A model generated the notes under the pieces. It was not told the origin of the DNA and did no database searches. It was given only the letters and a program-made list of their open reading frames with translations. 64,000 nucleotides of DNA from assembly GCF_002854065.1 (NCBI RefSeq), contig NZ_CP024147.1; one strand, given 5' to 3'. Below, piece after piece: positions 7,790-49,412 of this stretch (its first letter is position 1; every line of letters starts with the position of its first letter). The position numbers and the translations under genes were made by a program. This DNA comes from Escherichia coli. GTDB taxonomy: Bacteria > Pseudomonadota > Gammaproteobacteria > Enterobacterales > Enterobacteriaceae.

Positions 7790-7798
7790 GGCATGTCC

Positions 7799-7850: not shown

Positions 7851-7861
7851 GTTTCCCTTCC

Positions 7862-33861: not shown

Positions 33862-36474
33862 ATGATGCTCAGTAGCGAGTTTTTGCGCTTTTTTCAAACC
33901 TTAAACACAACAGAAGTCCCCAGTAATGTCAGGAAAATAGCGAATCTTGTGTGGGATAACCTAGATGATATAACCCCATTGGGCACTTCGCAGGGTCAGC
34001 GAGTCAGGCGCATTGTCTCTCTGGCACAGTCTGCATGGGATGCCCTCAGTACAGAAGTACAGCCACTACCAGAGCAGACCGCTGAACGCGTCTCCACGTT
34101 TAGTCGGCTGAGAAAGATATCTGTTGGACCATTTAGAGGGTTTGCAAAGCAAGAAGAATTTGATCTGGATTCACGTCTAGTGCTGATTTACGGCCCCAAT
34201 GGTACTGGGAAGTCAAGTTTCTGCGAAGCGCTTGAATATACATTACTGGGCAATGTGGCTGAGGCCGAAAGCAAGCGTTTCCGGAATCAAAACGACTATT
34301 TTAAAAATGCACATGTCAATCGGTTTTCTGTTCCAGAGATAATTGGTGTCGGAGATCATGGGCAGGATGTGTCGATTGAGAATAACGAAGCACAGTATCG
34401 CTTTTGCTTTGTTGAAAAAAATCGTATCGACAACTTTTCAAGAATCGCGGCTCTGGTCCCAACAAGGCAGACTGAACTTATCTCAACACTATTCGGGCTA
34501 GATAGTTTTAATGATTTTGTGCGAAATTTTACATCAGATATTGATGCCAGATACATCGATCTAACAGGCGTAAAAGCAGGTCAGTTGGCAGAAAAGCGCA
34601 AGTCTCTTCTGGCTGCACAGCAGCAATTGGCGACAGGTCAGGCTGCCCTGGAAGGGTTGGCATCAGAGGAACAGACACTGGCTTCTGTTTATCGTGAAGG
34701 CCTGTCTTACCAGCAGATGCTAGCTGAGTTAAAAGGGGATGAACAAAATATCGGAACCATCCGACAGCTTGAAACAGAGTTACAAACGCCACTTCCGAAT
34801 CAGAGTAGCCTGACATCTGCTATTTTGAACGATATAAGTAGCGCTGTTGAAACGGCACTTATAGATCTGGAAAGCAAGCAGAAGCAACTGGCAGAGGCAA
34901 GTCAGCAGGTTTCATATAAAAATTTATTTGAAGCAGTTGTCCAGTTACAGGGTACCAGCCCGGAACAATGCCCTGCATGCCATACCCCTCTTCAGCAAAC
35001 CGCCAAAAACCCCTACAGCCATGCCTGTGATGAATTGCTAAAGCTTGAGTTTCTGTCGACATTACAGGGAGAAATAACTCAGCTGGAAAAATTAATTGGC
35101 CAGTTGATGTACAGTGTTTCACAAGTAATCGGCACATGCTGTCAGTTTTTGCCACATGACAATGCTCTTGAAGTATTCCGAAATGAAAATGGCATCACTT
35201 TATGGCGTAATCTGCGGCAGCAAACAGGAGATGGCATAACTCCCTGGGCTCAGCTTGAAAAACAGGTGTGGCATCTGGAGGGAGAAGATAAAAAAATAGA
35301 GGAAGCAACTAAATTGCGAGAATCCCGTCAGCGGGATCTTGCGAGAATGCGTGAATCTGATCGCCAGATAACGATTTTGCAGACAAGAAGAGATACGATA
35401 GAAAAAACCATCTCTGCGGCTCAGTTGTTGATTGGCAACTTTGATACTGAAAACAGGCAGCTAATTGAAGAAGTTGCTCACGAAGAAGACATTGTAAGGA
35501 AAAACAAAGCAATTTCAGAAGCGTATTCCCGGTTCGTTTTACAGCTGAACGCCTATAAAGAGGGATTACCTCAGAGACTTGTAGCGAATCTTGGGGATCA
35601 CATTGTCACTCTCTACAACGCATTTAACCGTAATGACCCCCCGGGAGAAAAGCTAGCAGGTATCAAACTACCTCTGCTGCAGAATCAGCGACTGGAAGTA
35701 GCGTTTCAGAATAATCCAACGCAACTATTCGATGCCCTGCATGTACTTAGTGAGGGGCATGTACGCTGTATAGGGCTGGCTATTTTGTTGGCAAAAAACA
35801 TTAATGAACAGTGTCCACTTTTGATATTTGATGACCCGGTCAATGCTATTGATGACGATCACAGAGAATCGATTCGGAGAACGTTGTTTGAAGATGCTTT
35901 CTTTGCTGAAAAACAAATCATTCTGGCCTGCCATGGAGAGGAATTCTTCAAAGACATCCAGAATTTATTGCCAGCGCCGGTTGCCGCACAGTCCAAGACT
36001 TTCAGCTTCTTACCGCGTCTTGACGAATTGCATATCCGCGTAGATTTTAACTGCGCTCCCAGGAACTATATTATTTCTGCACGAGGGCATTATGAGCGTA
36101 ATGAGATTCGGGAGGCGCTTGCAAAATGCAGACAGTCACTTGAATCGTTGATGAAGGGGAGAGTCTGGCGATATGTAAATAAATATGGTGATGGTAATCT
36201 TAGTCTCAAGCTAAGGTCAGCAACGGCACCTATTGAGTTACGTAACTTGTCGGATCAATTGAAGAAACAGATCAATAAAGCTGAGTTCCGTGACCAAAAT
36301 AAAAACGCCGTATTCACACCAATTGATGTGTTAACTGGGCTAAGTGGAGAATCACGAGAATGGCGCTATCTAAATAAAGGTACGCATGAGGAAGACGGCA
36401 GGGCTGAGTTTGATCGAGCAACAGTAGAAACCATGATTTCTGCCCTTGAGGCGCTCGATCAGGCTGTGAGTTAA
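33862..36474 (+). CDS. SMC/Rad50/RloC-like ABC ATPase with central CxxC hook and uncharacterised C-terminal domain
   Basis: 870 aa; Walker A LIYGPNGTGKSS, about 500 aa Q/E/L-rich coiled-coil with EQCPACH midway, signature-like LSEGHVRCIGLA, Walker B/D-loop LLIFDDPVNAIDDDH, H-loop ILACHGEEF, then about 170 aa of unknown function. Confidence 0.65.
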   Translation: MMLSSEFLRFFQTLNTTEVPSNVRKIANLVWDNLDDITPLGTSQGQRVRRIVSLAQSAWDALSTEVQPLPEQTAERVSTFSRLRKISVGPFRGFAKQEEFDLDSRLVLIYGPNGTGKSSFCEALEYTLLGNVAEAESKRFRNQNDYFKNAHVNRFSVPEIIGVGDHGQDVSIENNEAQYRFCFVEKNRIDNFSRIAALVPTRQTELISTLFGLDSFNDFVRNFTSDIDARYIDLTGVKAGQLAEKRKSLLAAQQQLATGQAALEGLASEEQTLASVYREGLSYQQMLAELKGDEQNIGTIRQLETELQTPLPNQSSLTSAILNDISSAVETALIDLESKQKQLAEASQQVSYKNLFEAVVQLQGTSPEQCPACHTPLQQTAKNPYSHACDELLKLEFLSTLQGEITQLEKLIGQLMYSVSQVIGTCCQFLPHDNALEVFRNENGITLWRNLRQQTGDGITPWAQLEKQVWHLEGEDKKIEEATKLRESRQRDLARMRESDRQITILQTRRDTIEKTISAAQLLIGNFDTENRQLIEEVAHEEDIVRKNKAISEAYSRFVLQLNAYKEGLPQRLVANLGDHIVTLYNAFNRNDPPGEKLAGIKLPLLQNQRLEVAFQNNPTQLFDALHVLSEGHVRCIGLAILLAKNINEQCPLLIFDDPVNAIDDDHRESIRRTLFEDAFFAEKQIILACHGEEFFKDIQNLLPAPVAAQSKTFSFLPRLDELHIRVDFNCAPRNYIISARGHYERNEIREALAKCRQSLESLMKGRVWRYVNKYGDGNLSLKLRSATAPIELRNLSDQLKKQINKAEFRDQNKNAVFTPIDVLTGLSGESREWRYLNKGTHEEDGRAEFDRATVETMISALEALDQAVS

Positions 36475-36607
36475 TATATGTAAAGTGGTCTATAAAATTG
36501 GCCACAACATGAGAATTACTGTTCGTTGGTTCCTGGCACAGAGCGTCTGTCAGATTTAGTTTAGCTCTGTGTCATACCAGTGGTAGCTCAAGTCGCGGCT
36601 AATGCAA

Positions 36608-37336
36608 TTAATCACTGAATACCAACGAATCTAATACACCTTGTCCACTATGAACTCCTCCTTCAACTGACTCTGCTGATTTGCTACGGATCAAATACCC
36701 AGCAAAACTGTGATCAGCGCTAGATGCATTGTTACCTATCTGGACGGAGAACATTCCTAGTTCGCTGACCAGATCAGTAACCTGATATAACTCCCCTTTA
36801 CGGACAACCAGAGAAGGTGTAGCTCGCGGGACAGGATGTATCCGACGCATGAACGACCAGGATTGATATTGCAGCGGGTCAAGTCTTGCCAGTTTTAACT
36901 GGATATCAGAGCCAAACAGACAATGCCCACCCCCTTCGCCCTGGTTTTTGAGAACCCATGAATCAGAAGGAGACTCTTTTACAATGCTGATTGTATCAGG
37001 GCTAACAGGAAGCATTTCGCCCAACACCATTTTTATGATATCAACCTCTTCCGGCTTCAGTCCAAAAGCAATCAGTTCATCGCACCCCAAATGAGAGAGC
37101 AACATTTGTACTCGCTTACTTGTCGCAAGTTGCTGAGCGACTGTTGCATTCACCGCAACTCGGTGCTGCTCAATCAATACTCGCGTGGCCATTAGCGTCT
37201 GGCAACACTCCTTCTCATTGAGACTGGCGGCTTCATAATCTGAGTATTGATATCCGGCACGTAAGTAAACAGAAGTAGTATGGGTGTATGAACTTGTCAT
37301 TGTTTTGACATTTATCAAATATATTCGATTATGCAT
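36608..37336 (-). CDS. hypothetical cysteine-containing protein, divergent from arsR
   Basis: 242-aa ORF (alternative start at 37300); no motif recognised. Confidence 0.4.
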   Translation of the reverse strand: MHNRIYLINVKTMTSSYTHTTSVYLRAGYQYSDYEAASLNEKECCQTLMATRVLIEQHRVAVNATVAQQLATSKRVQMLLSHLGCDELIAFGLKPEEVDIIKMVLGEMLPVSPDTISIVKESPSDSWVLKNQGEGGGHCLFGSDIQLKLARLDPLQYQSWSFMRRIHPVPRATPSLVVRKGELYQVTDLVSELGMFSVQIGNNASSADHSFAGYLIRSKSAESVEGGVHSGQGVLDSLVFSD

Positions 37337-37393
37337 ATGTGTTGTTGATTTTCATCTCCGCAGGAGATATCGTTACCTAAACGAACAGGAGGA

Positions 37394-37747
37394 ATGATGT
37401 CGCTTACTTCCCTACAACTCTTTAAGAATCTGTCTGATGAAACACGTCTGGGTATTGTTCTCATACTCAGAACTATGGGGGAGTTGTGCGTATGTGATCT
37501 TTGCACTGCACTTGATCAATCACAGCCTAAGATCTCCCGGCATCTGGCTATGTTGCGAGAAAGTGGGATTTTGCTTGATAGTAAACACGGTAAATGGGTT
37601 CATTACCGGTTATCCCCACACATTCCTTCATGGGCTGCACAGATTATTGAGCAGGCCTGGTTAAGCCAACAGGACGATCTTCAGGCCATCGCCCGTAAAC
37701 TGGCTTCAGTCAACTGCACTAACAGCAGTAAGGCTATTTGTATTTAA
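37394..37747 (+). CDS. arsR: arsenite-responsive repressor ArsR
   Basis: HTH plus As(III)-binding ELCVCDLC motif. Confidence 0.9.
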   Translation: MMSLTSLQLFKNLSDETRLGIVLILRTMGELCVCDLCTALDQSQPKISRHLAMLRESGILLDSKHGKWVHYRLSPHIPSWAAQIIEQAWLSQQDDLQAIARKLASVNCTNSSKAICI

Positions 37748-37787
37748 AAATTTGCCTGAATATATATGATTTCCCACATATGAGGTA

Positions 37788-38156
37788 TTGAGAATGAAAA
37801 CGCTAGCGGTATTCGACCCGGCAATGTGTTGTAGCACCGGTGTCTGCGGTACTGATGTCGATCAGGCTCTGGTTGATTTTTCCGCGGATGTGCAATGGCT
37901 GAAACAACGAGGTGTTCAGGTAGATCGTTTCAATCTGGCACAGCAACCGATGAGCTTTGTCCAGAACGAGAAAGTTAAAGCATTTATTGAGGCTTCTGGT
38001 GCGGAAGGGCTGCCATTACTGTTACTGGATGGCGAAACAGTGATGGCCGGGCGTTATCCGAAACGGGCTGAACTTGCACGGTGGTTTGGAATTCCGCTGG
38101 AGAAAGTAGGATTAGCGCCTTCAGGCTGCTGCGGTGGTAATACTTCTTGTTGTTAA
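37788..38156 (+). CDS. arsD: arsenic metallochaperone/regulator ArsD
   Basis: N-terminal MCCSTGVCG (Cys12/13/18) and C-terminal CCGGNTSCC. Confidence 0.9.
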   Translation: MRMKTLAVFDPAMCCSTGVCGTDVDQALVDFSADVQWLKQRGVQVDRFNLAQQPMSFVQNEKVKAFIEASGAEGLPLLLLDGETVMAGRYPKRAELARWFGIPLEKVGLAPSGCCGGNTSCC

Positions 38157-38173
38157 GTATGTCAGGAGGACAT

Positions 38174-39925
38174 ATGAAATTCTTACAGAACATCCCCCCT
38201 TATCTGTTTTTTACTGGTAAAGGAGGCGTTGGTAAAACCTCTATTTCCTGCGCCACGGCGATCCGTCTGGCAGAACAGGGTAAACGAGTGCTGCTGGTCA
38301 GTACCGATCCGGCCTCAAACGTAGGCCAGGTCTTTGGCCAGGTTATTGGCAATACTATTCAGCCAATAGCCACTGTTCCTGGATTGTCGGCACTTGAGAT
38401 TGATCCTCAGGCCGCTGCGCAACAGTACCGGGCCAGAATCGTTGACCCTATTAAAGGTGTCCTGCCTGATGACGTCGTTAGCAGCATCAACGAACAACTG
38501 TCTGGTGCATGCACAACAGAGATTGCGGCTTTTGATGAGTTTACCGGATTACTGACAGACGCCTCTTTGCTGACCCAGTTTGACCATATCATCTTTGATA
38601 CCGCGCCAACCGGCCATACTATTCGCCTTCTCCAGTTGCCAGGCGCCTGGAGCAGCTTTATTGACAGCAATCCCGAGGGCGCATCCTGCCTCGGCCCGAT
38701 GGCGGGGCTGGAAAAACAGCGTGAACAGTATGCCCATGCCGTTGAAGCACTGTCCGACCCAGCGCGTACCCGCCTGGTTTTAGTTGCCAGACTGCAAAAA
38801 TCCACCCTGCAAGAAGTCGCCCGAACTCATTTAGAACTCGCCGCAATTGGCCTTAAAAATCAGTACTTGGTCATTAATGGCGTTCTGCCCAAAACTGAAG
38901 CGGCAAACGATACACTGGCTGCGGCTATATGGGACCGTGAACAGGAGGCGCTGGCCAATCTTCCTTCTGACCTTTCCGGTCTGCCAACTGACACGTTATT
39001 CCTCCAACCACTCAATATGGTCGGCGTGGCTGCATTAAGTGGGCTTCTCTCCTCTCAGCCTGAGGCAGCATCATCTTCTGAAGAATACATTCAGCAACGA
39101 CCTGAAATTCCGTCGCTCTCAGCGTTAGTCGATGATATTGCCCGTAACGAACATGGTCTGATAATGCTAATGGGCAAAGGCGGTGTGGGGAAAACCACGA
39201 TGGCGGCAGCCATTGCCGTCAGACTGGCCGAAATGGGATTTGATGTCCATCTGACCACCTCAGATCCAGCAGCACACCTCAGCACAACCCTGAACGGTAG
39301 CCTTAACAATCTGCAGGTCAGTAGAATCGATCCTCACGAGGAAACAGAACGCTATCGTCAGCATGTTCTTGATACCAAGGGTGGAGAACTGGATGAAGCG
39401 GGTAAACGCCTGCTGGAAGAAGATTTACGCTCTCCTTGTACCGAAGAGATTGCGGTCTTCCAGGCCTTTTCACGGGTGATTCGTGAAGCGGGTAAGCGCT
39501 TCGTGGTCATGGATACGGCACCCACCGGGCATACCCTACTGCTGCTGGATGCCACCGGGGCGTATCACCGCGAAATTGCTAAGAAAATGGGCGATAAAGG
39601 CCATTTCACCACGCCAATGATGCAGCTTCAGGACCCGGAGCGAACCAAAGTGTTACTGGTCACGCTGCCGGAAACCACGCCCGTGCTTGAGGCGGCAAAT
39701 TTGCAGGCCGACCTTGAACGCGCAGGGATTCATCCCTGGGGCTGGATTATCAATAACAGCCTTTCCATTGCGGATACCCGTTCGCCGCTGCTTCGTCTGC
39801 GGGCGCAACAGGAACTTCCGCAGATCGAGAGTGTTAAACTCCAGCATGCCAGTCGCGTAGCTCTTGTTCCTGTACTGGCGTCAGAACCGACCGGCATCGA
39901 CAAACTCAAACAACTCGCTGGTTAA
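38174..39925 (+). CDS. arsA: arsenite pump ATPase ArsA
   Basis: Start [23 protein letters not shown]; duplicated P-loops (GKGGVGKTS / GKGGVGKTT) and DTAPTGH motifs. Confidence 0.9.
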
Positions 39926-39972
39926 TTATTGTCATTACTCGGGGCAGCTTTGCTGCCCTTTCGGGAGGTTAT

Positions 39973-41262
39973 ATGTTACTGGCAGGAGCCATTTTTATCC
40001 TGACCATCGTGTTGGTTATCTGGCAGCCAAAGGGATTAGGCATTGGCTGGAGCGCCACGCTGGGTGCCGTACTGGCTCTGGCATCGGGTGTGATTCATAT
40101 CGCCGATATTCCGGTGGTGTGGAATATCGTCTGGAACGCCACGGCCACCTTTATTGCCGTCATTATCATCAGTCTGTTGCTGGATGAGTCCGGCTTTTTT
40201 GAATGGGCTGCACTGCACGTTTCCCGCTGGGGCAATGGGCGTGGACGTCTGCTATTTACCTATATTGTTCTGCTCGGCGCGGCGGTGGCGGCATTGTTTG
40301 CCAACGATGGCGCGGCGTTAATTCTGACGCCGATCGTTATCGCCATGCTACTGGCGCTGGGATTCAGTAAAAGCACCACGCTGGCTTTCGTGATGGCCGC
40401 AGGGTTTATTGCCGATACCGCCAGCTTGCCACTTATCGTATCGAACCTGGTCAATATCGTTTCGGCTGATTTCTTCAAACTGGGATTCACGGAGTATGCG
40501 TCAGTTATGGTGCCGGTGGATATTGCCGCCATTGTCGCCACGCTGGTGATGCTGCATCTTTTTTTCCGCAAAGATATCCCGCCCACTTATGAGCTGGCGC
40601 GACTGAAAGAACCCGCAAAAGCCATCAAAGATCCTGCGACGTTCAGAACCGGCTGGGTTGTGCTCCTCCTTCTGCTGGTCGGTTTTTTTGTCCTTGAGCC
40701 GATGGGGATCCCTGTGAGTGCGATTGCGGCAGTGGGGGCGGCAATCCTGTTTGCGGTGGCCAAAAAAGGTCATGGTATTAACACCGGTAAAGTGCTGCGC
40801 GGCGCGCCCTGGCAGATCGTGATCTTCTCACTGGGGATGTATCTGGTGGTATACGGGTTGCGTAACGCCGGTCTGACGGATTATCTCTCTGACGTGCTGA
40901 ACGTACTGGCAGATAAAGGACTGTGGGCCGCGACGCTGGGGACAGGATTCCTGACTGCATTCCTCTCTTCTATCATGAACAATATGCCGACCGTACTGGT
41001 TGGCGCACTGTCGATTGATGGCAGCACCGCGACCGGCGTTATCAAAGAAGCGATGATTTATGCCAACGTCATTGGCTGCGATCTGGGGCCGAAAATCACC
41101 CCTATTGGTAGCCTGGCGACACTGCTCTGGCTGCACGTGCTTTCACAGAAGAATATGACAATCTCGTGGGGATACTACTTCCGCACCGGGATTATCATGA
41201 CCCTGCCTGTGCTGTTTGTAACGCTGGCTGCGCTGGCGCTACGTCTCTCTGTCACTTTGTAA
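39973..41262 (+). CDS. arsB: arsenite efflux permease ArsB
   Basis: 429-aa polytopic membrane protein between arsA and arsC. Confidence 0.9.
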
Positions 41263-41274
41263 TGAGATTCTGAT

Positions 41275-41700
41275 ATGAGCAACATCACTATTTATCACAA
41301 CCCAGCCTGCGGCACCTCGCGTAATACGCTGGAGATGATCCGCAACAGCGGTACCGAGCCGACCATTATTCTTTACCTTGAGAACCCACCTTCGAGGGAT
41401 GAATTGGTCAAACTCATTGCCGATATGGGTATTTCAGTACGAGCGCTGCTGCGTAAAAACGTTGAGCCTTACGAGCAACTGGGTCTTGCAGAAGATAAAT
41501 TTACTGACGATCAGCTCATCGACTTTATGTTGCAACACCCAATTCTGATTAACCGTCCGATCGTGGTTACGCCGCTGGGAACCAGACTGTGCCGTCCTTC
41601 TGAAGTGGTTCTGGATATCCTGCAGGATGCGCAGAAAGGGGCTTTCGCTAAGGAAGACGGTGAAAAGGTCGTTGATGAAGCAGGAAAACGGCTGAAATAA
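41275..41700 (+). CDS. arsC: arsenate reductase ArsC (glutaredoxin-coupled type)
   Basis: 141 aa, catalytic HNPACGTSRN motif. Confidence 0.9.
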   Translation: MSNITIYHNPACGTSRNTLEMIRNSGTEPTIILYLENPPSRDELVKLIADMGISVRALLRKNVEPYEQLGLAEDKFTDDQLIDFMLQHPILINRPIVVTPLGTRLCRPSEVVLDILQDAQKGAFAKEDGEKVVDEAGKRLK

Positions 41701-41702
41701 AT

Positions 41703-41728
41703 AATAAGGGGGCGAATGCCCCCTTATT
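41703..41728. terminator. 11-bp perfect palindrome after arsC
   Basis: AATAAGGGGGC gaat GCCCCCTTATT. Confidence 0.55.
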
Positions 41729-41734
41729 CGTACC

Positions 41735-42271
41735 TCAGAGCATCATGCCTGAATCCGATGGTAACGTGCTGTTCCCTTCGCCCAGATTTCGTTGCAGCAA
41801 CACTGTGTCAAGCCAACGACCATGCTTGAAGCCAATATTTTTCAGCGTACCAATCTCAGTAAATCCAACCTGCTGATGGACTTTCAGCGAACCTTGATTA
41901 TTGCTATCGCCGACAATAGCAATCATCTGCCGATAGCCGTGAGTTTCTGCCCAGGCAATGACGTAGCGCAGCAACGCTTTTCCTGTCCCCTGACGCTGTG
42001 CGTCCGGGTGAATATAAATCGAATCTTCGAGAGTGTGGCGGTAGGCGTAGCGTTCACGGTAACGAGTGAGATAACAATACCCGATAACCTTTTCTTCCTC
42101 TAACGCGACAACCCACGGTAGCGCCTGATTGCGGATCTTTTTCAGGCGGGTAAGCATCTCGTGGGTATCCGGAGGTTCAGTTTCAAAGCTGGCGGTACCG
42201 TGAAGAACATGATGGGCGTAGATATCGCGTATAGCGGGGATGTGCTTTTCTTCTGCGTTAACGATTTTCAT
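41735..42271 (-). CDS. GNAT family N-acetyltransferase (phosphinothricin acetyltransferase-like; possible ArsN-type)
   Basis: 178 aa; acetyl-CoA binding region QRQGTGKALL; located between two ars operons. Confidence 0.65.
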   Translation of the reverse strand: MKIVNAEEKHIPAIRDIYAHHVLHGTASFETEPPDTHEMLTRLKKIRNQALPWVVALEEEKVIGYCYLTRYRERYAYRHTLEDSIYIHPDAQRQGTGKALLRYVIAWAETHGYRQMIAIVGDSNNQGSLKVHQQVGFTEIGTLKNIGFKHGRWLDTVLLQRNLGEGNSTLPSDSGMML

Positions 42272-42483
42272 TGTTCTGTTCCCGTTGGCATCTTTTTCAA
42301 GGTTACTTGAAAATCCTGAGGAAAGGTAAATACAAAAGCTTATGACCCAATAAGCAGGCTAATCTTCAATCCCATCTTTTGTTTTCATTCATGCAGGGAG
42401 ACAAATATGTGCTTCCAGTATCCTTATTTTTTATGTTACCTTTTCCGTTATGTCTAAAATGACATAACGGAAAAGGTAAACCC

Positions 42484-43308
42484 ATGTCCTCAGAATCAAA
42501 ACGGAACGGAAAAGGTTTTTTATCAGGCACGTTAATCGGTGCTTTAGGCGGCTTAATTGGCCTCGGTGGCGCTGAGTTCCGCCTTCCCGTCCTGATGGGT
42601 AGTTTCAAAATGCCGACGCTTGAAGCGGTTATTTTTAACAAAGCGATGAGCCTTACTGTTGTCGCTGTTGCTTTGATATTCCGCACAAAATCCATCGCCG
42701 TCGACCAGCTGTTTGCTCATCTTGATATTGTCATCAATTTGCTGGCCGGGAGCCTTATAGGTGCATGGTGGGCAGCAGGAAGAGCCATAAAAATGTCCCG
42801 TATTTGGCTGGACAGAACCATTCTGCTCCTGCTTGTTATCCTGTCATTCGTCATGTTTTCAGAAGCATTGATGCCTCTGCATGATAGCTCCGCTGGATTA
42901 TTCCAGCCCGGAATCGCGACCATTATTGCGGGTGTTATTGCGGGTGTTATTGCGGGTTTCTTCATCGGGAATGTTGCTGCTTTGCTGGGTGTTGCAGGGG
43001 GAGAGCTCCTGATACCAACTATCGTTATCCTTTTTGGGGCTGACATTAAACTGGCTGGCAGTTTGTCACTCATGATCAGTTTACCGACGATGATTGTGGG
43101 GTTCTCTCGCTACACTAATGCAGATGCTTTCCAGATCCTGAGAAAAGAGAAAAAACTTTTTGTGTGGATGGTCATCGGTTCCGTTATAGGTGCCGCTATT
43201 GGGGGCCTTATGCTCGGTATGTTCCCGGTAAGAGTACTTATGACTCTGTTAGGCGCGGTACTTCTTATTTCCGCGATCAAAACCTTTAAGCATACCCGGC
43301 AAAGATAA
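42484..43308 (+). CDS. TauE/SafE (TSUP) family membrane transporter
   Basis: 274-aa, 4+4 TM repeat architecture with GxxGG motifs (GALGGLIGLGGAEF, AALLGVAGGELL). Confidence 0.7.
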   Translation: MSSESKRNGKGFLSGTLIGALGGLIGLGGAEFRLPVLMGSFKMPTLEAVIFNKAMSLTVVAVALIFRTKSIAVDQLFAHLDIVINLLAGSLIGAWWAAGRAIKMSRIWLDRTILLLLVILSFVMFSEALMPLHDSSAGLFQPGIATIIAGVIAGVIAGFFIGNVAALLGVAGGELLIPTIVILFGADIKLAGSLSLMISLPTMIVGFSRYTNADAFQILRKEKKLFVWMVIGSVIGAAIGGLMLGMFPVRVLMTLLGAVLLISAIKTFKHTRQR

Positions 43309-43370
43309 TAGCCGTTTACGCTTTGGACTATTCCGCATTACAGAGAAAATGATTTCGAAAAGGTATCAGA

Positions 43371-43739
43371 ATGAAAAAGAATCCCCTTAAATCAAACTTA
43401 ATCTTAGTCAGACCGAGGATCTATATTAACGACAACATCTCGCTGGGGCCGGGGAAGGTTGACCTTTTAAGGGCGATTGATGGCTTTCACTCTCTTTCTG
43501 CGGCAGCTAAAGATTTGGGGATACCTTATAAAAAAGCATGGCTCTTAATTGACACTTTGAATAAAGGGATTGGTCAGCCAGTTGTAACCACTTCCACTGG
43601 TGGTAACAAGGGCGGTGGTACAGTTCTGACGCCATTGGGGCGTAGCCTGCTGATCTGGTATGACCAGGCCGAGGCCCACCTCAATGAGCAATCTCAGCAA
43701 CAGTTAATCGAACTTGAAAAGATTCTTTTTGGAAAATGA
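43371..43739 (+). CDS. ModE N-terminal-domain-like winged-helix regulator
   Basis: LGPGKVDLLRAIDGFHSLSAAAKDLGIPYKKAW...GGNKGGGTVLTPLG matches the ModE-type HTH pattern. Confidence 0.6.
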   Translation: MKKNPLKSNLILVRPRIYINDNISLGPGKVDLLRAIDGFHSLSAAAKDLGIPYKKAWLLIDTLNKGIGQPVVTTSTGGNKGGGTVLTPLGRSLLIWYDQAEAHLNEQSQQQLIELEKILFGK

Positions 43740-43784
43740 CAGAGACCTTTGTTATCCATCGGGAAAATAGAGTGACAGCAATGC

Positions 43785-43810
43785 ATGAAGGGGGCTAATG
43801 CCCCCTTCAT
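43785..43810. terminator. 11-bp perfect palindrome, near-copy of the hairpin at 41703
   Basis: ATGAAGGGGGC taat GCCCCCTTCAT between convergent ModE-like gene and arsA2. Confidence 0.55.
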
Positions 43811-43812
43811 TA

Positions 43813-45570
43813 TTACTTCGCCATTTCTTCCAGCAGGTCAATACCAACCGGCTCTTCGCTCTGTAGCGCTGTTAATGCAATACGCTTTGCATACTGCTCT
43901 TCCACATCAGAGATGAGAGGCAGCTCGCGGTTAGCTCTGGTCTTCAGGAAAGGTGAAGACGGCTCAGCAGCTGCCAGGCTGTTATTCACAACCCATGCCC
44001 ACGGCTCAATGCCAGCCCGACGCAGATCCTGCTGCAGGTTAGCGGCTTCCAGTACAGGTGTCGTTTCGGCAAGCGTCACGATAATCACCTTCGTCTTCTC
44101 CGGGTCCTGCAATTGCATCATTGGCGTCATCACATGGTCATGTGTTTGCCCCATCTGGCGCACCATTTCCCGGTGATAGGCTCCAGTCGCATCCAGTAGC
44201 AGAAGTGTGTGACCCGTTGGCGCGGTGTCCATAATGACAAAATGATCGTCTGCCTCTTTGATTATCCGCGAGAATGCCTGGAAGACGGCGATCTCTTCAG
44301 TACATGGTGAGCGGAGATCTTCTTCCAGCACCGCCAGCCCCTCAGCGTCTAATCCTTTGCCCTGATTCTCCAGTACAAAACGGCGATAACGCTCTGTCTC
44401 CACCTTCGGATCGATACGGCTGACCTGCAGATTTGGCAGCGAGCCATCCAGCGTGTAAGACAGATGTGCTGCCGGATCGGACGTGGTCAGATGGACTTTA
44501 TGACCGCGTTTTGCCAGCGATACCGCGACCGATGCTGCAACAGTCGTTTTGCCCACGCCGCCTTTCCCCATCGTCATTACCAGCCCTTTGCCTGTCAGAC
44601 TGAGTTCATCCACTAACGAGGAAAGTTTCGGTAAATCCAGAGCATTTAGCGTTGTATTGGAGAGAGACAGTGGCGCTTTGCTCTCTGTTAATAACTCTCG
44701 CAGGGCTTCCAGACCGACCAGATTAAATGGCTTCAGAGACAGCTGCGAGCGGGGAAGATTAACCAGATTATCAGGCATTGCCTGTAATGCTTTTTCTTCC
44801 CGAGCCAGAATACTTTGCGCCAGTGGATCATTTTCACCGGCAAACGGTGGCAGCACACCATTAATGGCAAGGTGTTGATGCTGCAAACCAATAGCAGAAA
44901 GCTCATCGTGCGTATGAGAAACCTCTTTCAGCGTTGAAGCCTGAGCTCGGGCAACCAGCACTAAGCGTGTGAGAGCTGCGTCGGACAGCGCTTTAACCGC
45001 ATCGGAGTACTGGTGCTGTTGTTTCTCAAGCCCTACCAGAGGTCCAAGGTTTGCAGCGGCATCAGGGTTCGCTTCGAGATAACCGCTCCAGGCTCCCGGC
45101 AATTCAAGCATGCGGATGGTGTGACCGGTTGGCGCGGTATCAAATACGATATGGTCATATTTTCCCCGCAGCTCATGATTGGTCAGCAGACCAGTAAACT
45201 CATCAAACGCAGCGATTTCCGTGGTGCATGAGCCGGAAAGCTGCTCTTCAATGCTGCTGACCACATCGGCTGGCATCAGCCCGCGAACAGGGTCGAGCAC
45301 ACGGTCACGATAGGCTTGCGCTGCAGCCATCGGATCAACTTCCATCGCGGCAAGATTTTCTACAGTACTGATATCTGTGATTCGGTGGCCGATAGTCTGG
45401 CTAAATACCTGGCCGACATTGGAAGCCGGATCGGTACTCACCAGAAGCGTTCTCTTACCCTGATCGGCCAGCCATACTGCAGTAGCACAGGCCAGGGATG
45501 TCTTACCCACTCCACCTTTACCAGTGAAGAAGATGAACGGGGGAATGTCTTTTAAAAATGGCATATTCAT
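43813..45570 (-). CDS. arsA: second arsenite pump ATPase ArsA paralogue
   Basis: Start [25 protein letters not shown]; duplicated P-loops and DTAPTGH motifs; diverged from the copy at 38174. Confidence 0.85.
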   Translation of the reverse strand: MNMPFLKDIPPFIFFTGKGGVGKTSLACATAVWLADQGKRTLLVSTDPASNVGQVFSQTIGHRITDISTVENLAAMEVDPMAAAQAYRDRVLDPVRGLMPADVVSSIEEQLSGSCTTEIAAFDEFTGLLTNHELRGKYDHIVFDTAPTGHTIRMLELPGAWSGYLEANPDAAANLGPLVGLEKQQHQYSDAVKALSDAALTRLVLVARAQASTLKEVSHTHDELSAIGLQHQHLAINGVLPPFAGENDPLAQSILAREEKALQAMPDNLVNLPRSQLSLKPFNLVGLEALRELLTESKAPLSLSNTTLNALDLPKLSSLVDELSLTGKGLVMTMGKGGVGKTTVAASVAVSLAKRGHKVHLTTSDPAAHLSYTLDGSLPNLQVSRIDPKVETERYRRFVLENQGKGLDAEGLAVLEEDLRSPCTEEIAVFQAFSRIIKEADDHFVIMDTAPTGHTLLLLDATGAYHREMVRQMGQTHDHVMTPMMQLQDPEKTKVIIVTLAETTPVLEAANLQQDLRRAGIEPWAWVVNNSLAAAEPSSPFLKTRANRELPLISDVEEQYAKRIALTALQSEEPVGIDLLEEMAK

Positions 45571-45590
45571 CAGTGATAGCTCCTCTGGAA

Positions 45591-45953
45591 TTAAGGCATA
45601 CGTGGAATGCTGCAGCAACGCGGTTGCGTACTGTCTTCACTCCAGTCCTGAGTTAGCGGAATATCTGCCCAACGGGCGATATCTTCACGAGTCGGCAGTT
45701 TGCCTGCCATCACCAGCTTGCCGTCGAGCAAGGTGACAGGGAGGGATTCCATCCCTGATGTGTTCATAAACTCTTTGATTACAGGGGTATTCAGGAACTG
45801 CTGCGGGTTTTTCGCAAGGCTGTAGCGCTGAATATCAACGCCATTCTTTTTCGCCCATTCGGCGCTGGCATTCCATTTGACGGCTTCGTCGCTCACCACA
45901 ACGCTGCTGGTTGCGCAGCAGCCTGCTGCTTCAAAGATCTCAATTTTTGACAT
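45591..45953 (-). CDS. arsD: divergent ArsD-like metallochaperone
   Basis: 120 aa; vicinal Cys pair (AAGCCATS) at the ArsD Cys12/13 position but lacks Cys18; C-terminal CC. Confidence 0.7.
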   Translation of the reverse strand: MSKIEIFEAAGCCATSSVVVSDEAVKWNASAEWAKKNGVDIQRYSLAKNPQQFLNTPVIKEFMNTSGMESLPVTLLDGKLVMAGKLPTREDIARWADIPLTQDWSEDSTQPRCCSIPRMP

Positions 45954-46028
45954 GGATTGTTTACCTCAGTGTTTAGTCATTTGGCTTTACACTGAGGTAA
46001 ACGAAGGTGGTGGGAAAAAGATGCGCGA

Positions 46029-46586
46029 TTAATTCATTTTTTTGTGGCAGCAGACAAAAGATGTGTCATCCGCCTCAATCTGGCAGAGTTCTGTCATCGT
46101 CTCTTTCAGGTGTTTTCTGGCCCGAAGTAGTCGGGATTTAAACGCTGTAAGCGTGATTCCCCATTCATCGGCCAGGGACTGCTGGGGACGCCGGTTAAGG
46201 TCGGACTCTTCAATCAACCACCGCTCATCTTCGGGTAAAGCCTGTAATGTTTCAGGCAGGCAAATATCCAGTGTTGAGATTGCATCAAGGGATGCGTCTG
46301 TTAATAGGGCATCTTCTTCCAGCTCAACAAACGCCCTGGTGGTTCGGTACTCATCAATCAGCAGATTCCTTGCTACCCGATACAACCAGGCTCGCGGATT
46401 TTCCATCTCACAAAAAATGTCTGAATGGGCTCGGGCACGCAGGAAAAGGTCTTGCAGAAGGTCTGCTGCTTTTTCGCTATCGCCTGTCTTCGATATCAGA
46501 AAGCGAGAAAATTCGCCTTCATGCTGCCGCCAGAACACGCTCATACAGCTGTTGAATGCTGTTATGTCACTCATACTAACCTTCAA
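46029..46586 (-). CDS. sigma-70 family (ECF-like) RNA polymerase sigma factor with Cys-rich C-terminal tail
   Basis: Region 2-like [13 protein letters not shown]...[15 protein letters not shown] and region 4-like HTH; C-terminus [16 protein letters not shown]. Confidence 0.6.
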
Positions 46587-47293
46587 ATTTTGCTCTGATT
46601 AACCCGTCGGGAAAGTTCTTCTGCAGACTCTTTTCGTTCACTGTAGCGATCGACAAGATAGGCAGAATTTGCCCGGGTCAACAATGTAAACTTCATCAAT
46701 TCTTCCATCACATCCACGATGCGGTCGTAATATGGTGACGGTTTCATACGTCCATCGTCATCAAACTCCTGCCAGGCTTTTGCTACCGAGGACTGGTTCG
46801 GAATAGTGATCATTCTCATCCAACGACCAAGCACGCGCATCTGGTTGACTGTGTTGAATGACTGGGAACCTCCACACACTTGCATAACAGCCAGAGTTTT
46901 TCCCTGAGAAGGACGAACAGCACCTTCAGATAATGGTATCCAGTCAATTTGTGCCTTCATAATACCAGTCATCGCTCCGTGTCGTTCCGGAGAGCACCAC
47001 ACCATTCCTTCAGACCAGCGGACCAGTTCACGCAACTCCATAACTTTTGGATGTGACTCCGGTGCATCATCAGGAAGTGGAAGGCCAGATGGATTAAAAA
47101 TGCGGACTTCTGCGCCCATCGCAGTTAACAACCGACCAGCTTCCTCTGTCGCCAGTCGACTGTATGAGCGCTCACGAACTGAGCCATAAAGCATTAGTAT
47201 ACGAGGGGGGTGAGATATTGTCGGTATCCCCATTTTTTGCTCAGTTATTGCAGCATCAAATAAATCAGGAACTATATTATTTAGCTTATTCAT
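46583..47293 (-). CDS. arsH: ArsH, NADPH-dependent FMN reductase family
   Basis: 236 aa with [12 protein letters not shown] flavodoxin-like motif. Confidence 0.85.
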
Positions 47294-47391
47294 TTTTTAT
47301 TTTCCCTATAGATTCGGGATCTTAGTAGGATGGATTCAGACGGTTCGATGCAGCTTTCGTCAATCATGACAGTTATGAGTTTTTCGGTTAC

Positions 47392-47715
47392 TTATCCATT
47401 TTTGCCAGCGGGTTCCGTAACATCTGTTTTACTGTTTACACAGCACTCTTCACGTAAGAATTCGATGATAGCTTCCAGTATTTCGTATTGAGAGACGCAC
47501 ATGAGCGTTCGACTCTCCCGGTTTTGTGTGACGAGTCCTACTGATACTAAGGCTGAAATATGATGACTTAACGTTGATGAGGGAATGCCAAGCTGCTTTT
47601 GCAATTCACCTACAGGCAAACCTTGTTCTCCAGCTTTTACAAGATGTTTGAATATGAACAAACGGGTCGGGTGACCCAGCTCTTTTAGTGCTTTAGCTAC
47701 TTCTTCCAATTGCAT
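47392..47715 (-). CDS. arsR: ArsR/SmtB-family repressor (second ars regulator) with C-terminal vicinal cysteines
   Basis: 107 aa, HTH LPVGELQKQLGIPSSTLSHHISAL, C-terminal EECCVN. Confidence 0.75.
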   Translation of the reverse strand: MQLEEVAKALKELGHPTRLFIFKHLVKAGEQGLPVGELQKQLGIPSSTLSHHISALVSVGLVTQNRESRTLMCVSQYEILEAIIEFLREECCVNSKTDVTEPAGKNG

Positions 47716-47820
47716 GTGACAACCCTCTGTCTAATGATATTTCGATAATACCAGAAATATCTTGACCAGAATTATATTTCGATTATTCTAGAAATGTAGA
47801 TTTTGTCAAGAGGGTTTAGT

Positions 47821-48954
47821 ATGAATAGTTGGATTTCTATGCTGCAAGATGCCGCAGAGATGTTTTTGTTTTTGGCCGTCGAGCTATCTTTGCTGTTTAT
47901 TGTCATCAGTGCCGGTGTGAGCCTGATAAGGCAAAAGGTCCCGGACCATAAAATCCAGCAATTGTTGGGGGCGAAAAAAGGAAAAGGCTACCTGCTGGCC
48001 TCGTTGTTGGGAGCCGTTACCCCTTTCTGTAGTTGCTCAACAATTCCAATGCTACGAGGGTTGTTGTCGGCGAAAGCAGGGTTTGGTCCGACACTCACTT
48101 TTTTGTTTGTTTCACCGTTGCTTAATCCCATTATCGTGGGGTTAATGTGGGTTACCTTTGGCTGGAAAGTAACTTTGTTGTACGCGATCATCGCTGCCGG
48201 TGTCTCAGTCCTTGCCAGTATCGTATTGGATTTACTAGGATTTGAACGTCATATTGTTGATCACAAAAACTCAGCATCAAGTGGTTGCGCCACCAAATGT
48301 GATGATTCCGAAGCTTCGGTAAAAACGTCGGCGGGTTCCAGTTGTTGCAGCACTAGCTCGACTCAATTGCCTGTAAAAACGAGTTGCTGTACTTCATCAG
48401 CGAACCCCATAATTAACTTAAGGACGGTAAAGAACGAGCAGAACGTATCAACGTGTTGTTCATCAATATCATCTGAACAACCAGCTGTTAGCTGTTGCAG
48501 CAGCGAGAATCTGGGCAATGTGAATCTCACACCGAATACCACCTCTGGCCCAATAAAGTTAGCTATGAAAGATGCCTTACAGCAGTTTAAGGATGTTCTG
48601 CCTTATCTTTTGTTAGGTGTATTAATAGGTTCATTTATTTATGGCTTTATCCCTTCAGAGTGGATTGCAGCTCATGCCGGAGCAGATAATCCCTTAGCCA
48701 TACCGCTGAGTGCAGTTGTTGGTATTCCGTTGTATATACGCGCAGAGGCAGTGATACCACTTGCATCAGTGCTGATGACTAAAGGAATGGGCCTGGGGGC
48801 ATTAATGGCCTTGATAATCGGTAGTGCTGGAGCGAGTTTGACAGAAGTAATACTGCTTAAATCAATGTTCAGAATGCCTATGATAGTCGCTTTTCTGACA
48901 GTTATCTTAGGTATGGCAATTCTAATGGGTTATCTGACTCAATTCTTGTTTTAA
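47821..48954 (+). CDS. arsP: ArsP-type permease with extended Cys/Ser-rich loop
   Basis: TPFCSCS motif in TM region; ATG at 47821 after GAGGG; large S/T/C loop with four CC doublets. Confidence 0.75.
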   Translation: MNSWISMLQDAAEMFLFLAVELSLLFIVISAGVSLIRQKVPDHKIQQLLGAKKGKGYLLASLLGAVTPFCSCSTIPMLRGLLSAKAGFGPTLTFLFVSPLLNPIIVGLMWVTFGWKVTLLYAIIAAGVSVLASIVLDLLGFERHIVDHKNSASSGCATKCDDSEASVKTSAGSSCCSTSSTQLPVKTSCCTSSANPIINLRTVKNEQNVSTCCSSISSEQPAVSCCSSENLGNVNLTPNTTSGPIKLAMKDALQQFKDVLPYLLLGVLIGSFIYGFIPSEWIAAHAGADNPLAIPLSAVVGIPLYIRAEAVIPLASVLMTKGMGLGALMALIIGSAGASLTEVILLKSMFRMPMIVAFLTVILGMAILMGYLTQFLF

Positions 48955-49412
48955 AGCATTACAACAAGGGTCTTCTGCCTCAAGATCGAAGACCCTTCAG
49001 TTTCACTAGCAGATTGCCAGTTCTAGTAGCCAATTAAGAGAGGAGTGGATTGTTCTTTGGGTATTCGCAAACCCAGCAACGGTAAAATCAGGACTGACCC
49101 AAAAATTCAACGAGAATCCACCCCTTTAAATCTTTGATCCCTTCCCGGAAGCAGTATACGGCATATCTGAGTTAATCGTTTCTATTGGAGCTTCAGGGAA
49201 GCGACTCTTAATAGAAATCTGTTAATACTGTCCAAAACTGATTCCCTTTATCCCGAGCTGAACCGTAACAAAACCATCTCTCTTTGAGATCTCACATACT
49301 CAACGAACATAAGCCATTGCTGCTACATACAATTTTACGAAGCATATCACCTTAGTTGATCATGAAATCCATCCTGAATACAGATTGATTTTTATACTAT
49401 ATTAAGTGAGAT

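Follow-up and report, generated by a model that had tools for sequence, protein, structure and literature searches.

Two near-identical hairpins between convergent ars operons of Escherichia coli: probable copies of a single bidirectional terminator

Two arsenic resistance operons of opposite orientation lie in the 64,000-nucleotide stretch of E. coli DNA analyzed here (the window), separated by a 2-kb block of accessory genes that is bracketed by a pair of palindromes. The question raised by this locus is what such a pair represents. Is it a repeated element, the boundary of a functional module, or simply the transcription terminators of the neighboring genes? And if the palindromes are terminators, why should two of them be so much alike?

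The hairpin pair and its surroundings

The first operon, arsRDABC, begins with arsR-arsD-arsA-arsB (37394..41262, plus strand), assigned from open reading frames, the RefSeq annotation of the identical E. coli CUWW06 region and an NCBIfam match for ArsR. It ends with arsC (41275..41700, plus), a glutaredoxin-dependent arsenate reductase according to Pfam ArsC (2.7e-24) and annotation. Convergent with arsC is a gene for a GNAT N-acetyltransferase similar to phosphinothricin acetyltransferase (PAT) and ArsN1 (41735..42271, minus; Pfam Acetyltransf_1 7.7e-19, NCBIfam and PDB matches). It is followed by a TauE/SafE (TSUP) family membrane transporter (42484..43308, plus; Pfam TauE 7.6e-25 and annotation) and by a 122-residue winged-helix regulator (wHTH) resembling the N-terminal DNA-binding domain of ModE (43371..43739, plus; NCBIfam ModE_repress, PDB 2ijl and 1b9m). 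A second arsA, encoding an arsenical pump ATPase and called arsA2 below (43813..45570, minus; Pfam ArsA_ATPase 4.8e-103 and annotation), is the last gene of the oppositely oriented second operon. The rest of that operon (45591..47715, minus) consists of an arsD-like gene, an ECF sigma factor (SigZ-like), arsH and an ArsR/SmtB regulator, as judged by open reading frames, profile matches and annotation. The initial annotation of this locus, which placed a PAT-like acetyltransferase, a TSUP transporter and a ModE-like regulator between ars operons, agrees with the profile matches and RefSeq annotation. The only recombinase nearby, at 49413-50756, is a generic protein of the Phage_integrase family.

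The two near-identical palindromes described in the same annotation are present exactly at 41703-41728 and 43785-43810, neither being assigned to a strand. The left hairpin, hpL (AATAAGGGGGCgaatGCCCCCTTATT), reads AATAAGGGGGC-GAAT-GCCCCCTTATT and is a predicted bidirectional intrinsic terminator for arsC (plus) and the GNAT gene (minus). The right hairpin, hpR (ATGAAGGGGGCtaatGCCCCCTTCAT), reads ATGAAGGGGGC-TAAT-GCCCCCTTCAT and is likewise predicted to serve the wHTH gene (plus) and arsA2 (minus). In each, a perfect stem of 11 bp, 6-7 of them G-C, encloses a loop of 4 nt, and 19 of the 20 bases of the common core, AAGGGGGC-NAAT-GCCCCCTT, are the same. A repeat search paired them as a direct repeat of 20 nt (95% identity, spacing 2082 bp); as an inverted repeat, 32 nt are similar at 72%. 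Both are situated at convergent gene junctions, a point absent from the initial annotation. The left one begins 2 nt past the arsC stop codon and is 6 nt from that of the GNAT gene, and the right one lies 2 nt from the arsA2 stop codon and 45 nt from that of the wHTH gene.

With up to three mismatches allowed, no third copy of the core motif was found in the 64-kb window, where 0.01 matches are expected by chance and none of 100 shuffles equaled the observed count. Among E. coli genomes, 341 of 5426 have any match to the motif, with a median of one place per matching genome, and the matches inspected fall into three kinds of loci: the ars junction, a prophage and plasmid traG. The motif is therefore not dispersed but confined to few loci, and the earlier suggestion of a repeated element finds no support in either the window or the E. 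coli genomes. Because the motif is so rare in E. coli, two copies 2 kb apart are unlikely to be a coincidence. A dispersed repeat of the REP, MITE or insertion sequence end type was rejected on the same counts (two copies in the window, a median of one E. coli locus) and for its variable duplication length, described below. A segment in the GNAT/TauE interval at about 42347-42362 (AATAAGCAGGCTAAT) was considered as a decayed third hairpin copy and rejected, 901 of 2000 shuffles equaling its match to hpR and the arsA2 end of the window. The same segment aligns with the decayed hairpin of pEL-ars1, a tentative observation of weak significance (68 of 2000 shuffles as good). An Rfam scan of 41400-44100 gave no match apart from a chance match of a miRNA model to the operator-like palindrome upstream of TauE.

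Termination signals and stem conservation

Of all sites in the 14-kb region 36000-50000, hpL and hpR are the best two terminator-like ones. The RNA of hpL is predicted to fold with -18.8 kcal/mol on the plus strand and -19.4 kcal/mol on the minus strand (z -4.0 and -4.3), and that of hpR with -22.5 and -26.7 kcal/mol (z -5.2 and -5.7); for both hairpins and both strands the folding beats that of shuffled sequences by far. Each has the stable, G+C-rich stem and short loop of a Rho-independent terminator and lies immediately 3' of the gene that closes a transcription unit. The convergent junctions and the folding of both strands are those of a bidirectional one. The T-tracts are uneven. A strong T-rich tail follows hpL on the minus strand (TTATTATTTATTT): the 3' arm of the stem itself closes with TTATT, and ATTTATTTCA comes next. 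On the plus strand, hpR has the tail TATTACTTCG after a stem ending in TTCAT. In the directions of the ars operons the T-tracts are weak, hpL being followed by CGTACCTC on the plus strand and hpR by GCATTGCT on the minus strand. In the single-copy islands the tails are T-rich both ways, reading TTCATTATTACTT and TTCATCTTTATTTCAG on the two strands. A transcriptome study of a related Klebsiella plasmid contains nothing about terminators.

Conservation of the stem was assessed in ten orthologous hairpins of related islands, a small sample aligned in a register set by hand, in which 89% of the cells pair. Slid control alignments pair only 46-65%. In the same ten hairpins, 5 of the 11 pairs have changed on both sides (13 cells), which none of 500 shuffles matched. 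For example, GAAGGGGGC/GCCCCCTTC of the window corresponds to AGGTGGGGC/GCCCCACCT in Klebsiella. The loops vary freely among the orthologues (GAAT, TAAT, AATT, ATTT, AAAT, ATAT, GAT and GTC). A stem kept by compensatory changes around a drifting loop fits a bidirectional intrinsic terminator and not a sequence-specific site. The convergent junctions, the top two terminator scores, the folding of all four strands and the covariation together back the option, already offered by the initial annotation, that the palindromes may simply be bidirectional terminators, and this is most likely what hpL and hpR are predicted to be.

Perfect palindromes beside a block that encodes a regulator could also be operators, bound by the ModE-like protein or by ArsR, or stem-loops that stabilize mRNA 3' ends with no role in termination, and the weak T-tracts in the ars directions agree with either. 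We regard this as very improbable. The sites lie past stop codons at convergent gene ends and not at promoters; their G+C-rich stems, loops of 3-4 nt and compensatory changes are those of an RNA structure; and the hairpin is kept in islands that have no ModE-like gene. A stabilizing role would moreover be compatible with termination and is no alternative to it. A different, AT-rich palindrome at the TauE promoter is the obvious candidate for an operator: a perfect 19-bp inverted repeat at 42436..42479 (TTACCTTTTCCGTTATGTC / GACATAACGGAAAAGGTAA, spacer TAAAAT, 100% complementary, no strand assigned) that ends 5 nt before the TauE start codon. It is a candidate operator and promoter of the TauE-wHTH operon and belongs to the block, not to the hairpin pair. 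Its core is kept upstream of TauE in pEL-ars1, Citrobacter braakii and Hafnia, and also in non-ars contexts.

Related islands with one, two and three hairpins

If hpL and hpR are terminators of the ars operons, what is found where the block is missing? The proposed check, that islands without the block should join arsC directly to arsA2 at one copy of the palindrome, gave a positive result in about 390 plasmids (390-394), R46 among them, and in 43 E. coli genomes. At this single-copy junction arsC, 2 nt, a 26-nt hairpin, 2 nt and arsA2 follow one another, the stop codons being 30 nt apart, and the second operon is intact in the single-copy islands L130, L131, L139 and L140. When the window is aligned to L130, the segment common to its left and right matches is precisely the hairpin (L130 8145-8167). 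The stem of hpR is identical to the sole hairpin of the L130 and L140 islands, and the hairpin of L139 (pPK8568), CAATGAAGGGGGC-GAAT-GCCCCCTTCATTG, combines the loop of hpL with the outer stem of hpR. Since single-copy islands exist, the hairpins do delimit a structural variant.

Orthologous hairpins are found 3' of arsC in Klebsiella, E. coli MS14385, Hafnia and R46-type loci. Hafnia and C. braakii have three copies, in the order arsC-H-PTP-H-TauE-wHTH-H-arsA2 (H, hairpin), and the middle copy bears about 85 nt of a decayed arsA2 3' end (score 67.5; 0 of 2000 shuffles). Duplicated segments vary in length, the shortest measuring about 23 nt and the longest over 100 nt; this points to homologous recombination and speaks against a target-site duplication of fixed size. 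Hairpin copies have decayed where the ars genes on both sides are truncated remnants, pEL-ars1 being an example. No hairpin was found with TauE-wHTH outside ars islands, and the hairpin accordingly belongs to the ars genes.

Several observations limit how finely the event can be drawn. In Klebsiella islands the likeness of the two hairpins drops sharply, to 13 of 21 positions, and common descent of the two copies is therefore not evident there. No arsC or arsA2 3'-end remnants were found on the inner sides of the hairpins in the window or in the Klebsiella island; with no homology past the hairpins on these sides, the case for duplication there depends on a motif of 20-26 nt for which independent origins elsewhere are also seen. 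A synthetic deletion-junction query returned no single-hairpin island of the window's own lineage at 99% identity or more, the best being L139 at 95.6%, so that the crossover cannot be placed at the nucleotide level. The arsC genes of L139 and the window are 97.65% identical, and identity between these two islands follows a gradient across arsR to arsC. Against C. arsenatis the identity of the window steps inside the wHTH gene, a mosaic breakpoint within a gene. Because mosaic breakpoints of close relatives are found within genes too, the hairpins are not special for homologous exchange in general.

Could two independent terminators have come to look alike by convergence? The stem design is generic: an A-tract, a G5C stem, a short AT-rich loop and a T-tract, and likeness of this kind would be silent on history and on module boundaries. 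In a scan of the whole genome collection, the matches listed were unrelated terminators from many phyla with no ars context among them, and AAGGGGGC-N3-4-GCCCCCTT with A/T-rich flanks occurs in at least 120 unrelated genomes. Loop GAAT included, the hpL 20-mer recurs without a change 3' of a lambdoid prophage repressor gene, and a near-copy sits between convergent genes beside traG on unrelated plasmids. The dissimilar Klebsiella pair and the absence of inner-flank homology in the window speak in the same direction. We nonetheless consider convergence unlikely, since with few E. coli loci carrying the motif and 0.01 matches expected per window, a chance pair 2 kb apart is improbable in itself. 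Convergence also leaves aside the related islands with exactly one copy at a fused junction and the L139 hairpin intermediate between hpL and hpR. The arsA2 sequence flanking the middle copy of Hafnia proves that duplication of the junction does happen, and neither a GAAT nor a TAAT loop is present in any of the 120 unrelated matches listed. That hpL and hpR are paralogous copies of one Rho-independent bidirectional terminator of the convergent arsC/arsA2 junction is, in our assessment, probable.

The enclosed genes do not behave as a unit. GNAT accompanies arsRDABC without TauE-wHTH on Klebsiella plasmids, and TauE-wHTH occurs with the second arsA but without GNAT in Salmonella, Hafnia and pEL-ars1 loci. 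Because the two parts occur independently in other islands, the GNAT-TauE-wHTH block is not a single functional module. The module-boundary reading of the initial annotation thus survives in part: the hairpins are end points of a structural variant, but the 2 kb that they enclose is not one module. The GNAT protein is clearly PAT-like by sequence, matching phosphinothricin N-acetyltransferases in PDB with E 8e-53, and is PAT/ArsN1-like, yet it scores below the NCBIfam cut-offs for ArsN1 family B (145.4 bits against 210) and family A (101.4 against 170), as it does for PPT acetyltransferase (104.7 against 300). The wHTH protein (PDB 2ijl, 7.9e-17; ModE 1b9m, 1.4e-10) scores 77.9 bits against NCBIfam ModE_repress (cut-off 98.5) and 51.5 against full-length ModE (cut-off 369). 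It corresponds to the N-terminal domain only (122 residues) without the two C-terminal molybdate-binding Mop domains, and is not a full ModE. The TauE and ModE-like pair is without established arsenic function.

A further possibility is that the palindromes are sites of a dedicated cassette system, such as attC sites, Xer dif modules or the ends of a small transposable element, and that GNAT-TauE-wHTH is a mobile cassette. Repeats do bracket the block, a one-copy "empty site" exists, the Hafnia order of hairpin, gene(s), hairpin, gene(s) and hairpin looks like an array, and a tyrosine recombinase gene is 5.6 kb away at 49413-50756. That integrase is, however, missing from plasmid versions of the island, and no recombinase or transposase of the block itself appeared among the profile matches. 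GNAT and TauE-wHTH differ in distribution and divergence, so the block is no unit, and the hairpin is missing from TauE-wHTH elsewhere. The motif is not dispersed and the duplication length varies; pairing is kept and sequence is not, the opposite of a protein recognition site. Two specific candidates were rejected. For integron attC, no GTTRRRY core lies in or abutting 41690-41740 or 43770-43825 on either strand. Xer sites have an 11-bp XerC arm, a 6-bp spacer and an 11-bp XerD arm of the TTATG/ATAA type, and the 11-4-11 layout and G5C core of the hairpins misfit such 11-6-11 dif/pdif sites. The dedicated-cassette reading is already largely refuted, and we give it very little credence.

Junction history and comparison with known systems

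On the preferred reading of hpL and hpR as copies of one junction terminator, that terminator would belong to the convergent junction of arsC, at the end of arsRDABC, and arsA2, at the end of arsR2-arsH-sigma-arsD2-arsA2. The T-rich tails in the simplest islands are provided by the final codons of the two ars genes, each serving transcripts that come from the other. In the window, accessory genes lie inside this junction, GNAT leftward and TauE-wHTH rightward, with one hairpin attached to each ars gene. The copies may have arisen, or may have collapsed in single-copy islands, by recombination at the junction, the likely routes being homology-driven Campbell-type insertion, unequal crossover and deletion between 20-26-bp repeats. 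A dedicated site-specific system behind them is unlikely. Each copy would halt transcripts from both sides, insulating the ars operons from the accessory genes and preventing antisense read-through, and selection for termination would then have preserved the stems while loops and non-functional flanks drifted or decayed. Most likely, to go by the island comparisons, the hairpins mark where accessory genes were gained or lost, by insertion or by deletion.

A more far-reaching and, we think, doubtful extension is that the junction terminator acts as a portable, recombinase-independent "linker" at which accessory genes have been repeatedly captured and lost. Accessory genes would be captured preferentially at this junction owing either to its palindromic homology of 20-26 bp or to a propensity for cruciform or hairpin formation; each capture would leave a functional terminator on both sides; and arrays like arsC-H-PTP-H-TauE/wHTH-H-arsA2 could grow integron-like without an integrase. 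If general, this would make intrinsic terminators a structural grammar for the operon-level modular evolution of plasmids.

The ars-junction hairpins are real, but they are no new kind of element and involve no new mechanism. For annotation, the palindromes are best described as predicted terminators of four units (arsRDABC, GNAT, TauE-wHTH and the second ars operon) and not as the boundary of a mobile element. The locus is a clean worked example in which one junction has one, two or three terminator copies and different contents (GNAT, PTP, TauE-wHTH). Since the accessory genes at the junction vary, the arsC/arsA2 gap is a place to seek new arsenic-related accessory functions. The precise loss of accessory genes in the widespread R46-type plasmids can likewise be explained by short terminator repeats.

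How does this locus compare with known systems? The gene order arsRDABC is the same as in R46/R773-type ars islands, to which the window adds the TauE and ModE-like pair. As with ArsN1, the arsinothricin N-acetyltransferase, a PAT-like GNAT gene lies inside an ars cluster, though the GNAT of the window is below the equivalog cut-offs. Like REP/BIME elements, the hairpins are extragenic palindromes at gene 3' ends, in a position (between convergent genes) where such elements often occur; unlike them, they are not dispersed (two in 64 kb) and have no REP consensus. Integron attC cassettes share the short imperfect palindromes that bound gene-sized units, the unit-hairpin-unit arrays as in Hafnia, and the one-copy "empty" state. 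Here, in contrast, R''/R' core sites (GTTRRRY), the extrahelical-base signature, intI/attI and a conserved sequence are missing, and the units have their own promoters and differ in orientation. The Xer-dependent pdif modules of Acinetobacter plasmids also carry resistance genes between palindromic sites of 26-28 bp, with one module found in different contexts, but the ars hairpins are off the XerC/XerD consensus, keep pairing and not sequence, and coincide with gene-end terminators.

Short-repeat deletion and duplication proceed by RecA-independent slipped mispairing, unequal crossover or Campbell-type integration. As in recombination between short direct repeats or palindromes, the ars variants differ by exactly the DNA between 20-26-bp repeats, with one copy left. 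One ars lineage has a longer duplicated segment (the hairpin plus about 85 nt), as homology-driven events predict. Bidirectional Rho-independent terminators between convergent genes differ from the window in that here two copies lie 2 kb apart with accessory genes between them and, after the split, each copy has a good T-tract only toward the direction of the inner gene, termination being predicted. The two have in common a perfect G+C-rich stem, a short loop, flanks that are A-rich on the 5' side and T-rich on the 3' side, a short gap between convergent stop codons, and the use of the neighbor's coding sequence as the U-tract. Terminators of this kind between convergent E. coli genes have reportedly been described genome-wide by full-length RNA profiling.

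Hairpin pair and gene context

The two near-identical palindromes with 11-bp stems reported in the initial annotation were confirmed by their sequence, their stems and a repeat search of the window. The left hairpin, hpL (AATAAGGGGGCgaatGCCCCCTTATT, 41703-41728), and the right hairpin, hpR (ATGAAGGGGGCtaatGCCCCCTTCAT, 43785-43810), have perfect stems and 4-nt loops, and form a 20-nt repeat of 95% identity with a spacing of 2082 bp. The two stem pairs that differ between them are both compensated. No third site for the core AAGGGGGC-NAAT-GCCCCCTT was present in the 64-kb window with up to three mismatches allowed (0.01 expected by chance).

The rightward arsRDABC operon ends with arsC at 41700. 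It is followed by a leftward GNAT acetyltransferase gene (41735-42271), the rightward TauE gene (42484-43308) and a rightward gene for a 122-aa ModE-N-terminal-like regulator, wHTH (43371-43739); the leftward second operon (arsR2, arsH, ECF sigma, arsD2, arsA2) ends at 43813. Given these orientations at arsC/GNAT and wHTH/arsA2, both hairpins lie between convergent genes, each exactly 2 nt past where the outer ars gene stops. Kinship of the GNAT protein to phosphinothricin acetyltransferases is clear, as proposed earlier, and the suggested ArsN function is a fair possibility; the best NCBIfam match is ArsN1 family B at 145 bits, below the cut-off of 210.

Window positions 41000-44500 are 100% identical to the E. 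coli CUWW06 chromosome, in which gorA and dinQ flank an ars island. Besides the double ars cluster, the whole island (~29777-57500; L001 8777-36486 plus 20999), which adjoins the native ars locus, contains genes for a DEAD-box helicase, an SMC-like ATPase and a tyrosine integrase (49413-50756), as well as IS2 and hypothetical genes. In the annotation of the native locus arsC stands alone with its 3' end overlapped by IS1, native arsR and arsB being absent from the listing. Passengers considered unusual for ars islands are a eukaryotic-type glutathione-synthetase ATP-grasp protein (36608-37336, divergent from arsR), a SigZ-like ECF sigma factor (46029-46586, within the second ars operon) and an ArsP_1-family permease (47803-48954, divergent from arsR2).

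Within the GNAT-TauE-wHTH block, a perfect 19-bp inverted repeat (TTACCTTTTCCGTTATGTC / GACATAACGGAAAAGGTAA, TAAAAT spacer, 42436-42479) stops 5 nt short of the TauE start codon, and a further AACGGAAAAGGT copy in the TauE 5' end (42505-42516) makes a third half-site. The core CGTTATGTC...GACATAACG upstream of TauE is kept in all lineages inspected, including non-ars contexts; the repeat probably serves the ModE-like regulator as its operator, in overlap with the TauE promoter. A small palindrome, CTTATGACCCAATAAG (42339-42354), precedes the GNAT start by ~70-85 nt and is kept as CTTATGACCTGTATAAG in the diverged (69%) Klebsiella GNAT region (L002 ~7333-7349); it may belong to the promoter or an operator of GNAT. 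A 12-bp unit, TTATTGCGGGTG, occurs in three tandem copies within TauE (42923-42958). The TauE protein has 274 aa here, four more than its C. arsenatis orthologue (270 aa); an indel of 12 nt at the repeat would be the most likely cause.

Terminator-like features and probable common descent of the two copies

The two hairpins are the best two terminator-like sites within 36000-50000. RNA folding of the four strands, both hairpins in both directions, gave -18.8 to -26.7 kcal/mol with z-scores of -4.0 to -5.7. The T-rich tails are good where transcription comes from the inner genes but poor where it comes from the ars operons, and no Rfam family matches either hairpin. When ten orthologous hairpins were set in register, 89% of cells were paired (only 46-65% in slid controls), and both-side changes occurred at 5 of the 11 pairs, a covariation reached by no shuffle. 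Four stem pairs, all compensated, separate hpR from its Klebsiella counterpart on the arsA2 side (AGGTGGGGC/GCCCCACCT). Loops differ in nearly all lineages, and in pEL-ars1 of Enterobacter ludwigii the copies have decayed where their flanks are only truncated ars gene remnants. This pattern of paired cells, compensated changes, drifting loops and decay beside truncated remnants is that of an RNA stem kept by selection, which is what a terminator should show, and not that of a protein recognition sequence.

Islands retrieved from plasmids and E. coli genomes differ in layout. Type W (this window and a Citrobacter arsenatis plasmid) has the order arsC-hairpin-GNAT / TauE-wHTH-hairpin-arsA2, and type K, on common Klebsiella IncFIB(K) plasmids, has arsC-hairpin-GNAT-hairpin'-arsA2 without TauE-wHTH, the second hairpin being marked as a variant form. 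Type D (R46, ~390 plasmids and 43 E. coli genomes) joins arsC to arsA2 at one hairpin in a gap of 30 nt, so that the check proposed in the initial annotation for islands without the block comes out as predicted. The second operon is intact in the D-type loci L130, L131, L139 and L140. At the L130 junction the left and right matches to the window meet inside the hairpin, with a 23-nt overlap. Hafnia and C. braakii (L137, L135) have arsC-hairpin-PTP-hairpin-TauE-wHTH-hairpin-arsA2, the Salmonella IncFIB plasmid pCFSAN086835 (L004) has TauE-wHTH-hairpin-arsA2 cut by IS26, and pEL-ars1 (L005) has several of these junctions as decayed copies.

Several results indicate that hpL and hpR are related by descent. 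L130 and L140 (E. coli J3) each carry one hairpin, with exactly the hpR stem. The hairpin of L139 (E. coli pPK8568-156kb, arsC 97.65% identical to the window's), CAATGAAGGGGGC-GAAT-GCCCCCTTCATTG, combines the loop of hpL with the outer stem of hpR and is a natural intermediate. In Hafnia the ~85 nt after the middle hairpin align with the 3' end of arsA2 from the same island (score 67.5, a value that none of 2000 shuffles equalled). Duplication of the arsC-arsA2 junction is thereby demonstrated, and its variable length points to homology-driven recombination and not to transposase-type target duplication. TauE-wHTH pairs outside ars islands lack such a hairpin; it belongs to the arsA2 end and not to the cassette.

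Loops found in single-copy hairpins include ATTT (R46, L006 5719-5722; L131 ~8156-8159) and AAAT (J3, L140 14265-14268), on identical stems. These are mutual reverse complements, and a flip of the palindrome centre could have occurred instead of two substitutions. In pEL-ars1, 7600-7965 and 9360-9540 are stacked decayed junction pieces: an arsC end remnant, a hairpin and 138 nt from the 3' end of arsA2; next, ahead of TauE-wHTH, 109 nt from the 3' end of arsC and an eroded hairpin; and after TauE-wHTH another eroded hairpin with 160 nt from the 3' end of arsA2. Its functional arsC uses a different terminator. In the E. coli MS14385 chromosome a related hairpin, AAAGGGGGatatGCCCCCTTA (L009 3700-3730), follows the native arsRBC. 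A convergent arsR2, whose stop codon lies partly in the 3' arm of this hairpin, adds one more partner at the arsC-side junction, and an ArsP-like permease gene comes next. A candidate third hairpin in the window, AATAAGCAGGCTAAT (~42347-42362), resembles a left arm and loop and can be aligned to the decayed hairpin that precedes TauE in pEL-ars1. This likeness is statistically weak; the sequence may be a relic between the divergent GNAT and TauE promoters.

Proposed recombination history of the accessory genes

The earlier view of the block as one functional module was not borne out: GNAT and TauE-wHTH accompany different island parts. GNAT travels with arsRDABC in types W and K, the two deepest arsRDABC lineages (69% nucleotide identity between the two GNAT genes), and TauE-wHTH travels with the arsA2 end in type W, the Salmonella plasmid, Hafnia and pEL-ars1. 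Trees of arsRDABC and of arsA2-D2-sigma are incongruent; the left part of the window is ~81% identical to all others, and the right part 92-94% to D-type and Salmonella islands. An identity step against C. arsenatis places a breakpoint within wHTH. Between L139 and window 37394-41700 identity rises from arsR (82%) through arsD (88%), arsA (89%) and arsB (93%) to arsC (97.7%), then falls to 93% in arsA2, as nested recombination tracts that converge on the junction might produce.

Since breakpoints of ordinary homologous exchange also lie inside genes, the hairpins are end points of insertions and deletions and not the sole recombination points. Parsimony favours, on either tree, loss of the accessory genes from D-type islands via deletion between the two hairpin repeats. 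The trees are recombinant, however, and the collections include no D-type island at least 99% identical in the window's own lineage, so that the block may instead have been inserted with hairpin duplication.

Comparison with known elements

The defining features of integron attC and Xer/dif sites, of REP and MITE elements and of regulator operators were looked for where possible and were not found in the hairpins. Nor does the suggested repeated element hold, with two copies in the window; of 5426 complete E. coli genomes, no more than 341 match a 32-nt query around hpL, at a median of one place per genome. The motif is rare enough within E. coli to rule out coincidence for two copies at a distance of 2 kb. 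Non-ars matches among those inspected were a lambdoid prophage repressor terminator and a convergent junction near traG on unrelated plasmids. The exact 20-mer AAGGGGGCGAATGCCCCCTT follows a cI-like (LexA-family) repressor gene in a prophage of E. coli 22KM0354 (L133 1505-1528), and AATAAGGGGGCCagcaGGCCCCCTTATTCG (L132 1500-1535, plasmid of E. coli AR_0085) lies between a convergent traG-N-terminal-domain gene and a hypothetical gene; such terminators may have converged or may pass horizontally between loci. In a scan of 100,044 species genomes, the matches listed came from many phyla and had the same stem design, at sites that are A/T-flanked and look like terminators. The stem design is generic, and the 20-nt identity should not be over-read.

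The initial reading, a cautious one of probable bidirectional terminators and perhaps a module boundary, came near to this, and comparison with other islands makes it sharper. hpL and hpR are two paralogous copies of the ars-junction hairpin, by inference a bidirectional terminator, and the recombination mechanism is likewise inferred. They mark where accessory genes sit; the element is of an ordinary kind, and its evolutionary arrangement is neat.
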